From: Elusimicrobiota bacterium
GTDB lineage: Bacteria; Elusimicrobiota; Elusimicrobia; FEN-1173
Reading direction: 5' to 3'
DNA length: 34,652 nucleotides
Assembly: GCA_028278255.1 (NCBI GenBank)
Contig: JANQER010000057.1
Location: 1 to 34,652, forward strand
Shown: piece after piece, positions 21,065 through 24,720 of the stretch
How positions within the stretch are numbered: position 1 is the first letter of the stretch
Layout of the letters: each line of letters begins with the position of its first letter
Translations under genes and position numbers: made by a program
Notes under the pieces: generated by a model
What the model saw: the letters and a program-made list of their open reading frames with translations, nothing else
Told to the model about the DNA's origin: nothing
Database searches by the model: none

Positions 21065-22543
21065 ATGAGTTTTCTGAATACACATGAGGTCAAAATAGTT
21101 TTTGTTCTTTGTGCTCTTTCAGCAGCCAGGATTTTTTTGTTCAGCGCTGCTTTTCCTTTTTTTAATAATGTGGATGAAGTGGCTCACTTTGACACAGTCC
21201 ACAAATATTCCAGAGGATATGTCCCCCGCAATAAGATAGATCTATATGATGCAGAAACAGGCGTGTTTTCTGCTCTTTATGGCTCTCCTGAATACCTTCA
21301 GGACAATCGCCCTGAAGCCCCTTTTGTTCCTCTTTGGACACAGCCGGACAATGTCATCCGTGAGAAGGTGGCGTCTAAGTTGAGTTATAGGCCTATCAAT
21401 CATGAAGCCCATCAGCCGCCCATGTACTATTTTGTTGCCGGCGCGTGGTATAAGTTTCTTGGATTCTTTCGCATCAAGGACCTGAACAAACTCTATGCCG
21501 TTCGTTTTCTCAATTCAATAACCTTTGCCTTCACGCTTCTTCTGGCTTATTTTTTTGTGAGAGAATTTTTCCCTCAAAATTTGTTCCTGAGAGTGGGGGT
21601 GCCTTCTCTGATGGCCTTTTTCCCGCAGGATGCTTTGTTTGCCGTTACAAATGACGCTTTCAGCCATTTGACATACACGAGCGCTTTCTATCTGCTGTTT
21701 AAGCTGAACAAGAATCCCTGCCGTCATTATTTTTTCTACATTGTGTCAGCTTTGTCTGTGGCAGCGGCATTTTTGACAAAATTCACCAACTTTACCATTT
21801 TTTTCGTCTTGGGCTGTGTCGTTGTGTCTGTCCTTTACAGGGACATGAAAGAAAGAGGGCCTGAGCCGCATTCACAAATTCATGCCAAGCTGATCCTTCT
21901 TTGTTTTCTGGCATGCGGTTGTGTGGCTTTCTGGCTTATCAGGAGTCGAATTTATTTTGGCGATTTAACAGGGCATTATGTCATTTCGCAAACATGGACG
22001 CCTTTGGCATTGAAAGATATGCTGGGGCATCCCTTGTTTTCTTTAAAGGGGAGTCTTTATTTTTTTGATGAACTCATCAAAAATATATGGCGAGGAGAAA
22101 TGTTTTGGCATGGGAAAAGACTTTTGTGTTATGGAAACGACTTGTTCTTTTCGGCGTCAACGGTGATTTTTTTTGCGTGTGCATGGACATCTTGGGGAAG
22201 CAAAAGATTTTTTCAAAACAAAACACTCATCTATTTTTCGGGATTTATGGCTTGCCTTTTGCTCACGGCTTTGCTGGCTTGGACATCCATTGCCTATGAT
22301 TTTGGTGATTGCCCCTATCCCTCTAAAGAAATCCCATACGTGACATCCGGACGGTATTACACAGCGATTCTTTTGCCTTTTTTGCTGATATACTTGCAAG
22401 GGATGCAAAACCTTTTTGGAAAGTGGAAAAATTCCTTCTATCCTCTCCTCTTCCTTTTTGTTGTGATCTTATGGGTGACCCTGACAGAGGTTTTTATTTC
22501 AATCAGTGTTTTCAAAAGCCCTTTTAATTGGTTTCATTTCTAA
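21065..22543 (+). CDS. polytopic membrane protein, GT-C (ArnT/PMT/DUF2142-like) glycosyltransferase candidate
   Basis: About 12 hydrophobic segments. An early loop with HEAHQPPMYYF resembles GT39/GT83-type transferases. GGAAAGGAG RBS about 10 nt upstream. Confidence 0.55.
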   Translation: MSFLNTHEVKIVFVLCALSAARIFLFSAAFPFFNNVDEVAHFDTVHKYSRGYVPRNKIDLYDAETGVFSALYGSPEYLQDNRPEAPFVPLWTQPDNVIREKVASKLSYRPINHEAHQPPMYYFVAGAWYKFLGFFRIKDLNKLYAVRFLNSITFAFTLLLAYFFVREFFPQNLFLRVGVPSLMAFFPQDALFAVTNDAFSHLTYTSAFYLLFKLNKNPCRHYFFYIVSALSVAAAFLTKFTNFTIFFVLGCVVVSVLYRDMKERGPEPHSQIHAKLILLCFLACGCVAFWLIRSRIYFGDLTGHYVISQTWTPLALKDMLGHPLFSLKGSLYFFDELIKNIWRGEMFWHGKRLLCYGNDLFFSASTVIFFACAWTSWGSKRFFQNKTLIYFSGFMACLLLTALLAWTSIAYDFGDCPYPSKEIPYVTSGRYYTAILLPFLLIYLQGMQNLFGKWKNSFYPLLFLFVVILWVTLTEVFISISVFKSPFNWFHF

Positions 22544-22623
22544 AATCGGGTGACAAACATCCCCTTCCCAACAACTGTATACTTTGTTACAATTGTCCTG
22601 TTATAAATATTGATTATTCCGCG

Positions 22624-22713
22624 GCAACTCAATGGGTTGCAGGTCGCACGGATAAGTGCGACCTGTTTAGCAACGCTGCCGAGACGGTGAGGCGGCAGGA
22701 GGAGTTCACTCCC
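22624..22713 (+). ncRNA. unassigned structured element upstream of tRNA-Asn (four hairpins, one alternative pairing)
   Basis: GCAAC(22624-28)/GTTGC(22636-40). GGTCGCAC(22642-49)/GTGCGACC(22656-63). CTGCCG(22676-81)/CGGCAG(22693-98). GGAG/CTCC (22701-22712). GTTGC can instead pair with GCAAC at 22670-74. I recognise no known family. Confidence 0.3.
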
Positions 22714-22776
22714 ACATTGAGCGTTTCATAAACTAAATTTATTCCCCGGTAGCTCAATGGTGGAGCATTCGGCTGT

Positions 22777-23181
22777 ATGAAGTGCCTTTGGCATAAATGC
22801 CCAAGGAATCTTGTTGGCCATAGAAGATGTTTTTGCAGTGGAAATTGCAAAAATAATTATTATGTGGCCAGACGCAGAAAGATTCTGAAGGCAAAAGCAG
22901 TGGCTTACAAAGGCGGCAAATGCTGTCTTTGTGGTTACAATAATTGTCTGGAAGCTTTGACTTTTCATCATATTGTTGGGAAAGACTTTGGTATTTCTTA
23001 CAAGGGGTATACGAGGTCATGGGAAAAAGTCAAAAAAGAACTAGACAATTGTTGGCTTCTTTGTAGTAATTGCCACGCTGAGATTCATGCCAAAGAGGAT
23101 AATGCAGCTCTGTCTGGAAACAGGCAGATGATAAATCAGGTGAATTCAGGGAACCCTGACTGCTTAACTTTGGTTAAGTGA
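22777..23181 (+). CDS. intron-encoded HNH homing endonuclease
   Basis: 134-aa ORF with FCSGNCKNNYY...YKGGKCCLCGYNNCLEALTFHHI...N...CWLLCSNCHAEIH, a classic HNH/zinc-finger arrangement. Its ATG is the first three intron nucleotides and its stop lies just before the P4'/P6 core string. Confidence 0.8.
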   Translation: MKCLWHKCPRNLVGHRRCFCSGNCKNNYYVARRRKILKAKAVAYKGGKCCLCGYNNCLEALTFHHIVGKDFGISYKGYTRSWEKVKKELDNCWLLCSNCHAEIHAKEDNAALSGNRQMINQVNSGNPDCLTLVK

Positions 23182-23476
23182 AAGGCAATCCTGAGCCAAG
23201 CCTAAGAAAAGCTTATGGGGGTTTTTTCTTCCATAGGTTGATTGATAGGAAGGTGCAGAGACTAGAGCAAAAGCTCGTACCCTGTTAGAGGAGTGTCTCA
23301 CATAAGACTTCGAAGCGAAATTTTGGCAAAGACGTGGGCCAAAAATCGAAATGGCAAAAGCTTATGTTGGACGCACTCCTTAAAATGAGGGGAAGCGCCT
23401 GACTCCGTAAAGAACTAGCTAATTGTTCTATGGAGATGAGATAGTCCAGCCCTTAAGGAAACTTAGGGAAAAACTG
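22777..23476 (+). mobile_element. group I self-splicing intron (IC3-like) in the anticodon loop of tRNA-Asn
   Basis: The 5' exon ends in U (22776) and the intron ends in G (23476). Core strings: AAGGCAATCCTGAGCCAAGCC (23182-23202, P4'/P6), GGAAGGTGCAGAGACTA (23248-23264, R/P7 5') and GAGATAGTCC (23438-23447, S/P7 3'), with GACTA pairing TAGTC. GAAA-capped hairpins lie at 23110-23127 and 23450-23468 (P2-like and P9-like). Candidate P4 is TCAGG 23146-50 / CCTGA 23190-94. Candidate P3 is TCAGGTG 23136-42 / CGCCTGA 23396-402. Confidence 0.85.
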
Positions 23477-23525
23477 TAACCGAAGGGTTGCTGGTTCGAC
23501 CCCAGCCCGGGGAGCATATTAACTT

Positions 23526-23566
23526 AAAAAGCCATTTGACCGAATAAGTCAAATGGCTTTTTCTTT
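23526..23566. terminator. bidirectional rho-independent terminator between tRNA-Asn (+) and the CBS gene (-)
   Basis: AAAAA GCCATTTGAC cgaataa GTCAAATGGC TTTTT: a perfect 10-bp stem (23531-40 / 23548-57) flanked by an A-run and a T-run. Confidence 0.8.
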
Positions 23567-23631
23567 CTTCCGAAATCAAGAATTTTCCTGGTGCGGGTTT
23601 GGCCTGTTCAATCAAAAATCAAAAATAACCT

Positions 23632-24720
23632 TCATTCCCCAATATCCAATATGGCTTTCATGATATCTGTGCGTGTGATAATGCCTTTGATCTCGCCTGT
23701 CTTGTCATCCACAATCGGCATGCAGCCGATGTGCTTATCGCAAAACAACTCAACCACTTCAATGAGAGGGGTATGAGGCGCGGCTGTGATGGGGCTCTTG
23801 ATCATAATGTCCGTGATGAGTGTTTTTTTCCAGGCATCATCCCATCCTTCATTCACATTGATCAGATGATGTTGATATTTTGGTTTGCGGGATTTGGCAT
23901 CTCCTTCTTTGTCCGGAATTTGACTGGGCAGATGTTTTAACACATCTCGGTCTGAGACCACCCCGCATAGCTTTCCTTGGGAATTTGTCACCAACAAATG
24001 ACGGAGATTATGGTCTTGCATCAATTGAGCCGCATCCAGTAATGTGGCAGAGTCCGGCATTGTCTGTATTTTGTTTTGAATTTTACCGGCTGTGCCTTCA
24101 AAAAAAGCATTCTGATCAGCGCCCGCGGTGACAGAGTCAACGTGTGGGGAATTGTCAGAACTCTCCTTGTCTGCATAAACATCACGCATGGCCTGCAAAC
24201 GGTTAAAAAGATGAAGGATGTCTGTTGTGGTGATAATGCCTGTCAAAACAGAGGGTGTGCTGTCTCTTTTCACCACCAGCAGACAGTCAAATTTCTTCTC
24301 AATCATAGTGTGGACTACCTCAAAAACAGATGTGTCCGGGCAGACCGAGATGGGATGCGGTGTCATCAAAAAGCCCAACGGCTGGTTCTGAATAAACGCA
24401 TCCTGAGGAGACAGCTTTTCGTGCGCTGAACTGGCCAATGCCAGGTCCCGCTGAGACACGATTCCCACCAAAACAGGGAATCCCTTGTTGTTTTGCGCCT
24501 GCTGAGCGGAAGCCGTTTCCACAATAGGGATATGTCTGACATGGAGGGCTTCCAAAAACGCCAAACCTTGTGAAATTTTATGATCAGGCGTCAAATATTT
24601 CACCTTTGTGTTCATCACTGTTTCAGCTGTTTTAAAGTAATGAAAAAAGATGTCTTTTCCCTTGTCAAACTGTCCAAAGAGCCCTTTTAATTTTGACAGA
24701 TTGTCTTCTGAAAGCGGCAT
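23632..24720 (-). CDS. CBS-domain protein (two CBS pairs, no other recognisable domain)
   Basis: Repeated CBS signatures, e.g. ITDIMIKSPITAAPHTPLIEVVELFCDKHIGCMPIVDDKTGEIKGIITRTDIMKAI and LMQDHNLRHLLVTNSQGKLCGVVSDRDVLKHL. Confidence 0.8.
   Translation of the reverse strand: MPLSEDNLSKLKGLFGQFDKGKDIFFHYFKTAETVMNTKVKYLTPDHKISQGLAFLEALHVRHIPIVETASAQQAQNNKGFPVLVGIVSQRDLALASSAHEKLSPQDAFIQNQPLGFLMTPHPISVCPDTSVFEVVHTMIEKKFDCLLVVKRDSTPSVLTGIITTTDILHLFNRLQAMRDVYADKESSDNSPHVDSVTAGADQNAFFEGTAGKIQNKIQTMPDSATLLDAAQLMQDHNLRHLLVTNSQGKLCGVVSDRDVLKHLPSQIPDKEGDAKSRKPKYQHHLINVNEGWDDAWKKTLITDIMIKSPITAAPHTPLIEVVELFCDKHIGCMPIVDDKTGEIKGIITRTDIMKAILDIGE

Follow-up and report, generated by a model that had tools for sequence, protein, structure and literature searches.

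A group I intron encoding an HNH protein interrupts a tRNA-Asn(GUU) gene in an Elusimicrobiota bacterium

The stretch of DNA analyzed here (the window) is a 34,652-nucleotide (nt) contig of an Elusimicrobiota bacterium (GenBank assembly GCA_028278255.1, contig JANQER010000057.1, forward strand), and it contains a tRNA-Asn(GUU) gene in two pieces with an open reading frame (ORF) for an HNH protein lying between them. Ligated in silico, the pieces at 22743-22776 and 23477-23514 give the 72-nt sequence TCCCCGGTAGCTCAATGGTGGAGCATTCGGCTGT|TAACCGAAGGGTTGCTGGTTCGACCCCAGCCCGGGGAG, which ARAGORN folds into a cloverleaf with anticodon GUU and calls tRNA-Asn(gtt). With long introns allowed, ARAGORN located the split gene independently and placed a 700-nt intron at position 35; when run without an intron search, it reported no tRNA at this gene. 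The tRNA has an Asn-type body (U1-A72 and discriminator G73, UCCCCGG...CCGGGGA-G), as do all the bacterial relatives described below. The final base of the exon is U (U22776) and that of the intron is G (G23476). These data support a tRNA-Asn(GUU) in which a group I intron that bears an ORF for an HNH protein separates U35 from U36. An earlier reading of this DNA, made from the letters alone (the sequence-only reading), had proposed such an intron; its exon coordinates, its junction and its U and G termini proved exact, and two of the checks it had suggested, recognition of the ligated exons as tRNA-Asn and a match to Rfam family RF00028, both came out positive.

The RF00028 match covers 23076-23468 with a score of 79.9 bits (E = 6e-19; gathering score, 50), and the relatives score 57 to 97 bits. 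A conserved P3-P9 core with a P3/P7 pseudoknot and a terminal omega-G is present. To assess this core comparatively, the guide-to-3'-end segments of 57 introns were aligned. RNAalifold recovered P2, P4, P5, P6, P6a, P8 and P9 from the alignment, with compensatory changes in 26 of 31 pairs. Once P3, P7 and P7.1 had been added by hand, standard pairs occupied 92.7% of cells, compared with 30 to 45% when the 3' partners were slid by 1 to 3 columns; double-sided changes were seen in 38 of the 50 pairs, and none of 500 shuffles reached the observed covariation score. The five pairs of P7 are essentially invariant and so uninformative in this analysis, yet such invariance is expected of the guanosine-binding helix. 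Judged by this alignment, the ribozyme core is intact and under structural selection. Both GAAA-capped hairpins picked out earlier by eye are real, and they correspond to P2 (23110-23127) and P9 (23451-23468).

The 5' strand of P1 is predicted to be the last six nucleotides of the 5' exon, GGCUGU (22771-22776, with U22776 as U-1), paired with GCAGCU (23104-23109) over 6 base pairs: G.U, G-C, C-G, U-A, G-C and U.G. So predicted, P1 is canonical rather than weak and places a U.G wobble at the splice site. The sequence GCAGC is invariant directly 5' of P2 in all 57 aligned introns, which are non-identical; the first four pairs of P1 form in every one of them and all six in 42, and the U-1.G pair is kept throughout (57/57). 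The guide starts 327 nt from the 5' splice site, past the ORF body, and the order in every relative is GCAGCY, a GNRA-capped hairpin, UGAAAA and P3, all 3' of the ORF body. The HNH gene therefore occupies the P1 loop, which measures about 320 nt in the window (family median, 322 nt). Two other routes to a guide were set aside. A search for the longest complementary runs was too noisy, with many chance matches of 6 to 8 nt within the ORF, and a guide in the first Cys codon (U-1 with G22784), modelled on the P1 of the published Pam37 intron discussed below, was dropped given that all relatives have GCAGCY and P2 before P3.

The insertion site belongs to a known class. The catalogue of tRNA group I introns by Williams (2020; bioRxiv 10.1101/2020.01.27.920355) includes a class named Asn.4Ug, defined by an insertion point behind the fourth nucleotide of the anticodon loop together with U at -1 and G at omega, and the window intron has all of these features. 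The seed of the class, Pam37.Asn.4Ug, interrupts the same gene at the same insertion (CUGU|UAA) with the same U-1 and omega-G, which supersedes the statement in the sequence-only reading that no Asn(GUU) case was known. Over 228 aligned core positions, the window is 79% identical to Pam37.Asn.4Ug, compared with 62 to 67% for the Ile and Leu seeds. Like the window, Pam37.Asn.4Ug has a P7.1/P7.2-type insertion, and it carries GCAGCC and a GNRA (GUGA-capped) hairpin directly before P3. Unlike the window intron, it is 276 nt long and has no ORF; the words HNH, endonuclease and ORF never appear in the preprint. In the seed alignment, the P1 of Pam37 is drawn as a UGUA/ugua pairing close to the 5' end; the guide shared by the whole family described here is the downstream GCAGCY. 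In the Pam37.Asn.4Ug row of that alignment (gpI.sto), GCAGCC is followed by CUAUCUG-GUGA-CAGAUAG directly before P3, matching the family guide and P2. The P1/P2 assignment in this seed is probably shifted.

Subgroup IC3 introns, represented by Azoarcus tRNA-Ile(CAU) and cyanobacterial and plastid tRNA-Leu(UAA), likewise sit in the anticodon loops of bacterial tRNAs. They share with the window the core strings AAUUC.GGGAA, GCCAAG, AAGGUG.AGAGACUA and GAUAGUCC, as well as the GAAA-capped P2 and P9, but they interrupt other tRNAs at another position. The earlier impression that the core was nearly the same as that of IC3 introns thus holds only in part: identity is 62% to Azoarcus Ile and 67% to cyanobacterial Leu, and the window has an extra P7.1/P7.2 domain that classical IC3 tRNA introns lack. 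Their P1 loop is tetraloop-sized, in contrast to the long ORF-bearing loop here. The structured P7.1/P7.2 domain spans 127 nt in the window and is shorter in the relatives; because it lies between P7 and P3', the intron is, by its predicted structure, not plain IC3. The P7.2 arm (23280-23391) folds as a long hairpin that is stable and irregular; it exceeds its counterpart in every aligned relative by about 115 nt, and this extension accounts for an intron length of 700 nt compared with 510 to 615 nt elsewhere.

The ORF starts with an ATG at the first intron nucleotide and encodes 134 amino acids. A search with this protein returned 456 homologs, and the family comprises 4,409 clusters at 50% identity with E values of 1e-10 or better. 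Across 30 diverse homologs, C49, C52, H64, H65, C96, N98, C99, H100 and E102 never vary, and H104 is nearly invariant. The resulting pattern, CxxC...HH...CxNCH.E.H, unambiguously predicts a two-CxxC zinc site combined with the H-N-H motif of HNH nucleases, and the intact ORF with its conserved signature upholds the earlier identification of the gene. The AlphaFold2 (AF2) model has a mean predicted local distance difference test (pLDDT) score of 86 and is confident over residues 1 to about 110 (to about 23106), with values below 50 for residues 114-132. Using this model, Foldseek returned 17 best matches that are all of HNH type (Cap5, the Gme HNH nicking enzyme, T4 endonuclease VII, Cas9 and HNH-bearing Cascade). 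A profile search of PDB sequences yielded weak matches to the HNH domain of a group II intron maturase and to McrA, and an NCBIfam search gave partial, weak matches only; no close solved relative emerged from the PDB sequence and fold searches.

The predicted disorder of the C-terminal tail of the protein is explained by its last 25 codons (residues 110-134), which are ribozyme sequence, with the guide, P2, P3, P4 and P5 read in frame. The stop codon (23179-23181) falls inside the P5/P5a stretch enclosed by P4. In homologs, the peptide AALSGN is GCAGCUCUGUCUGGAAAC translated, and NQVNSGKP and KVQRLER are core sequence from further downstream. Several predicted proteins (P0006, P0009, P0016, P0019, P0022, P0031 and P0043; P0002-P0004 and P0008) have ends derived from tRNA and core that are gene-calling artefacts; the artefactual starts MVE(H/Q)PAV are the translated tRNA D-arm and anticodon stem. 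Many cluster representatives (P0017, P0032 and many of P0241-P0386) consist of two tandem HNH modules in 200 to 400 amino acids.

Relatives of the HNH protein are present in at least 566 species-representative genomes in a scan of one genome per GTDB species, of which the best 80 were analyzed in detail at the locus level. The contexts of four close homologs (L001-L004) all have an RF00028 match and a tRNA-Asn split at the same place, and according to ARAGORN with introns allowed, a split tRNA encloses the HNH gene at about 75 of the best 80. The isotypes Thr(tgt), Gly, Leu, Pro and Ser that it assigned to some of these split genes were rejected as mis-splits: the body of every mislabelled gene is that of tRNA-Asn (U1-A72, discriminator G), and each can be parsed as ...CUGU|intron...G|UAA.... 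The mislabelling occurs because ...G|UAA at the intron 3' end mimics an anticodon loop, and it is seen at L007, L009-L011, L014, L015, L018, L019, L025, L026 and other loci. A strict structural search for ..CUGU|intron..G|UAA.. in a tRNA with discriminator G succeeded in 69 of 86 sequences (85 loci plus the window), and several loci that it missed were confirmed by RF00028. The hosts include Elusimicrobia, Chloroflexi, Deltaproteobacteria, Nitrospira, Acidobacteria, Omnitrophota and many Patescibacteria, as well as Planctomycetes, Bacteroidota/Ignavibacteria, Chlamydiae, Margulisbacteria and Firmicutes. By these comparisons, the window intron is one member of a widespread family, and ORF-bearing tRNA introns, described as rare in the sequence-only reading, are in this form common in metagenome-derived genomes.

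Two of these loci carry ORF-less introns at the same site with a free-standing HNH gene about 200 nt away: one in Ca. Saccharicenans (L012, 1975-2737; intron of 251 nt, with a GCAGCU guide 7 nt from the splice site) and one in a Patescibacteria metagenome-assembled genome (MAG; L038, 1884-2746; intron of 344 nt). On their arrangement, both resemble stages in the entry of an endonuclease gene into the intron or in its exit.

A separate observation concerns a contig labelled 'Candidatus Woesearchaeota archaeon' (CAYIBB010000024.1; L059:2397-2980), where the same intron and HNH gene occur in an archaeal-type tRNA-Asn (G1-C72, GCCUCGG...); this intron scores 97.2 bits against RF00028. The contig looks genuinely archaeal because its neighboring genes encode an eIF-1A-type factor and a Pno1-like KH protein. 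Williams dismissed a single archaeal match as mis-binning (bioRxiv 10.1101/2020.01.27.920355).

The HNH family also extends to phages. At least 519 relatives are found on IMG/VR phage contigs, where the gene is free-standing within tRNA arrays. The nearest tRNA is tRNA-Asn at 34 of 76 phage loci, though tRNA-Asn makes up only 69 of the 651 tRNAs there (10.6%). The tRNA-Asn gene beside the HNH gene is usually intact and lies 0 to 25 nt downstream on the same strand. Cultured phages are alike in this respect (L166-L169: crAss-like DAC15, Bacillus phage Anthony, a T5-like Epseptimavirus and a Yersinia jumbo phage). Other phage members adjoin tRNA-Tyr, tRNA-Ile, tRNA-Cys and further tRNA genes (IMG/VR loci L086-L165), and such neighbors hint at diversified targets. 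Outside this set, uninterrupted tRNA-Asn genes that are identical over the 41 nt spanning the insertion site are present in 39 metagenome contigs, and potential targets are therefore available. We considered these genes as empty-site alleles of the window locus and rejected them in that role; they come from other organisms and are non-syntenic.

Taken together, these observations make it highly probable that the locus is a group I intron in tRNA-Asn whose P1 is formed with the GCAGCU guide and whose P1 loop holds the gene of an HNH homing endonuclease. In the precursor, as sequence and comparison show, the 5' exon end pairs with the guide to form P1 with its U.G at the splice site, P2 to P9 come directly after, and omega-G closes the intron. 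Exogenous guanosine would attack after U22776, and the freed exon would then attack after G23476 to yield mature tRNA-Asn. The P1 loop carries the gene of a small, putatively zinc-binding HNH endonuclease, and the 3' tail of this gene continues through the guide and P2-P5. Its product would act as a homing endonuclease that recognizes the DNA of uninterrupted tRNA-Asn genes and nicks or cuts near the anticodon region, such that the intron is copied into empty alleles. Homing of this kind would explain why the same intron and enzyme occur at the same nucleotide in many unrelated lineages. That it would be directed at tRNA-Asn genes is suggested because the intron is confined to one site, because the free-standing copies at L012 and L038 lie beside tRNA-Asn, and because of the tRNA-Asn association in phages. 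The intron is probably mobile.

Several results weigh against this reading in one part or another. On the RNA side, 13 relatives differ at exon position -5 and their guides show no compensating change; direct reading of the sequence reveals no P10 pairing; and folding must, given a guide 327 nt from the 5' splice site, bridge a translated ORF. On the protein side, the match to Pfam HNH (PF01844) scores 18.9 bits, under the cut-off of 21.4, and all the Foldseek matches are weak (E of 0.07 or more). As for mobility, ArgC homologs of other Elusimicrobiota led to no empty-site allele in a close syntenic relative: their loci share only TP_methylase-ArgC-ArgJ, plus tRNA-Ser in three, and have tRNA-Asn in none. 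The search for intron-less tRNA-Asn alleles that the sequence-only reading had suggested was thus successful among metagenome contigs and unsuccessful among syntenic relatives. Finally, the ATG at intron position +1 has no intronic Shine-Dalgarno sequence.

With regard to this last point, the D-arm in the window (22760-22779) and at L001 and L006, where the ORF also runs from intron +1, reads GGUGGAGC; its position 21 is G, in contrast to the A of most relatives, which creates a GGAG 11 nt upstream of the AUG in all three. The GGAG could be an exonic Shine-Dalgarno sequence acting in the precursor, or the excised intron (G+AUG...) could serve as a near-leaderless mRNA. Other family members have AGGA- or GAGG-like motifs just within the intron.

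An alternative that we regard as unlikely is that the intron splices and is inherited vertically while the HNH protein no longer homes, being inactive or serving another role such as an RNA folding aid. Many group I intron ORFs are known to decay or become maturases, the tail of this ORF overlaps the ribozyme core, and the ArgC-based synteny search found no empty-site polymorphism near the window genome. However, loss of homing fits poorly with catalytic and zinc-binding residues that are invariant across 30 diverse homologs, with a patchy distribution over more than ten phyla and an archaeal contig, and with free-standing copies that adjoin tRNA-Asn in phages and at L012 and L038.

Very unlikely, in our view, is the Azoarcus-like IC3 arrangement favored by the sequence-only reading, in which GUG at 22782-22784 is the guide, 22785-22806 is P2, the ORF lies further downstream and P1 is a weak helix of three wobbles. 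The GTG-CCUU...AAGG order does resemble the 5' end of the Azoarcus intron, and the 22785-22806 hairpin forms in the minimum-free-energy fold. Nevertheless, the stability of this hairpin does not exceed that of shuffled sequence (z = -1.0, equalled by 28 of 200 shuffles), L001 and L006, the closest relatives, both lack it, and it lies within codons of a conserved W-H-x-C peptide, whereas every relative has GCAGCY and a covarying GNRA-capped P2 directly before P3, including the ORF-less L012. We conclude that both the guide and the P2 of the earlier proposal were misplaced, and that GCAGCU, which gives a P1 of 6 base pairs, is the probable guide. Least likely of all is a dead tRNA pseudogene split by a mobile element, with tRNA-Asn supplied by an intact copy at another place in the genome: the window covers just 34.6 kb and other copies are possible, but both exons are flawless, the ribozyme core appears intact and structurally selected, the gene is followed by a terminator-like hairpin, and the same arrangement recurs in small genomes such as those of Patescibacteria.

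Other systems share parts of the arrangement proposed here, in which a group I intron of tRNA-Asn carries an HNH homing endonuclease gene. The tRNA-fMet intron of Synechocystis PCC 6803 is another group I intron that carries an ORF and interrupts the anticodon loop of a bacterial tRNA, in a different tRNA and at a different insertion site; its enzyme, I-Ssp6803I, targets the tRNA gene and belongs to the PD-(D/E)XK family, not to HNH. PMC5733544 and PMC8450103 mention this intron and its 150-codon ORF. Endonuclease genes among phage tRNA genes, as named in PMC2330249, are T4 SegB and T5 F-TflI and F-TflII along with F-TflIV. The T4 and T5 enzymes are free-standing rather than intron-encoded, and SegB is of the GIY-YIG type; homologs of the window HNH protein lie in the tRNA arrays of T5-like, crAss-like, Bastille-like and jumbo phages. 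I-HmuI, I-TevIII and I-PfoP3I resemble the window protein as HNH enzymes inside phage group I introns, but those introns interrupt protein-coding genes. Several HNH enzymes of phage group I introns are described as nicking enzymes in PMC3428280 and PMC3943268, and PMC5714182 assigns I-HmuI to a different His-Me finger clade. No sequence match of the window HNH protein to I-HmuI, I-TevIII or I-PfoP3I was found in the NCBIfam and PDB profile searches. A link between HNH proteins and tRNA group I introns was not found in the literature searched, and nothing there contradicts the earlier remark that no HNH-carrying tRNA intron had been described.

The features of the locus are listed in Table 1. 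The genes around the split tRNA-Asn are ordinary bacterial chromosome genes, encoding a class A penicillin-binding protein, ArgC, ArgJ, a CBS-domain protein and a DUF2142 protein, and the ArgC has its best named relatives in Elusimicrobia/Elusimicrobiota MAGs (64 to 65% identity), which places the source among uncultured Elusimicrobiota. Directly upstream of the tRNA, 22618-22726 is strongly structured (z = -3.3), with a closing stem CUCAAUG/CAUUGAG and three hairpins; it matches no Rfam family, and none of the related loci compared contains a similar sequence. A tRNA-like element upstream was considered and discarded, as an Rfam E-value scan of 22450-23650 gave RF00028, two chance miRNA matches and nothing else.

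Table 1. Positions of the tRNA exons, the intron, its ORF and its predicted ribozyme elements in the window
Feature	Position	Strand	Basis
tRNA-Asn 5' exon (acceptor, D-arm, 5' anticodon stem, loop CUGU)	22743..22776	+	ARAGORN, sequence, P1 pairing
Group I intron, 700 nt, between anticodon U35 and U36 (class Asn.4Ug)	22777..23476	+	RF00028; same site in at least 69 related loci; 79% core identity to Pam37.Asn.4Ug
HNH endonuclease ORF (putative), 134 amino acids, ATG at intron nt +1	22777..23181	+	ORF list; homologs; invariant residues; AF2 model
Internal guide sequence GCAGCU, P1 3' strand, G23104 pairing with U22776	23104..23109	+	GCAGCY directly 5' of P2 in 57/57 family members
P2 hairpin CUGUCUG-GAAA-CAGGCAG	23110..23127	+	Compensatory changes in 6/6 aligned pairs; 98% of cells paired
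P3 5' strand UCAGGUG, partner 23396-23402	23136..23142	+	5/7 pairs covary
P4 (23146-23151 / 23189-23194) enclosing P5/P5a (23155-23185)	23146..23194	+	P4 100% paired, double changes
P6 (GCC/GGU) and P6a arm	23195..23254	+	Covariation
P7 5' strand GACUA, partner UAGUC 23442-23446; guanosine-binding helix	23260..23264	+	Invariant in 57/57
P7.1 hairpin (23265-23276) and long P7.2 arm (about 23280-23391)	23265..23391	+	Fold z-score -4.4; alignment
P3 3' strand CGCCUGA	23396..23402	+	Covariation
P8 hairpin (CUCCG / UGGAG)	23403..23435	+	4/5 pairs covary
P7 3' strand UAGUC, preceded by J8/7 GAUGAGA	23442..23446	+	Invariant columns
P9 hairpin CCUUAAG-GAAA-CUUAGGG	23451..23468	+	6/7 pairs covary
Omega-G, last intron nucleotide	23476..23476	+	Sequence; G before UAA in all related loci
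tRNA-Asn 3' exon (anticodon-loop UAA to discriminator G73), CCA not encoded	23477..23514	+	Sequence, ARAGORN
Intrinsic-terminator-like hairpin and T run, 12 nt past the tRNA	23526..23562	+	Consensus match only

While the insertion class is already catalogued and common, the dedicated HNH family and its double life in phages and cells appear not to have been described. We give roughly even weight to the proposal that this is an HNH lineage specialized on tRNA genes, chiefly tRNA-Asn, that is free-standing in phages and intron-borne across bacterial phyla and DPANN archaea. If so, it would represent the first HNH-type homing endonuclease of tRNA introns, would offer a natural series for the movement of an endonuclease gene into or out of an intron, and would include a group I intron in a genuine archaeal tRNA gene. 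Should splicing be needed for the cell's tRNA-Asn, every Asn codon would hang on the ribozyme, a strong hold for a selfish element. There are also consequences for annotation. Standard tRNA finders miss or mislabel such genes, and carrier genomes may be scored as being without tRNA-Asn; the authors of tRNAscan-SE 2.0 say of their program that it was not built to detect group I introns. In addition, exon and ribozyme core sequences end up translated as spurious protein ends. With an intron-borne clade on one side and free-standing phage and bacterial copies beside tRNA-Asn on the other, the family may provide a tractable system for studying how endonuclease genes and introns unite.

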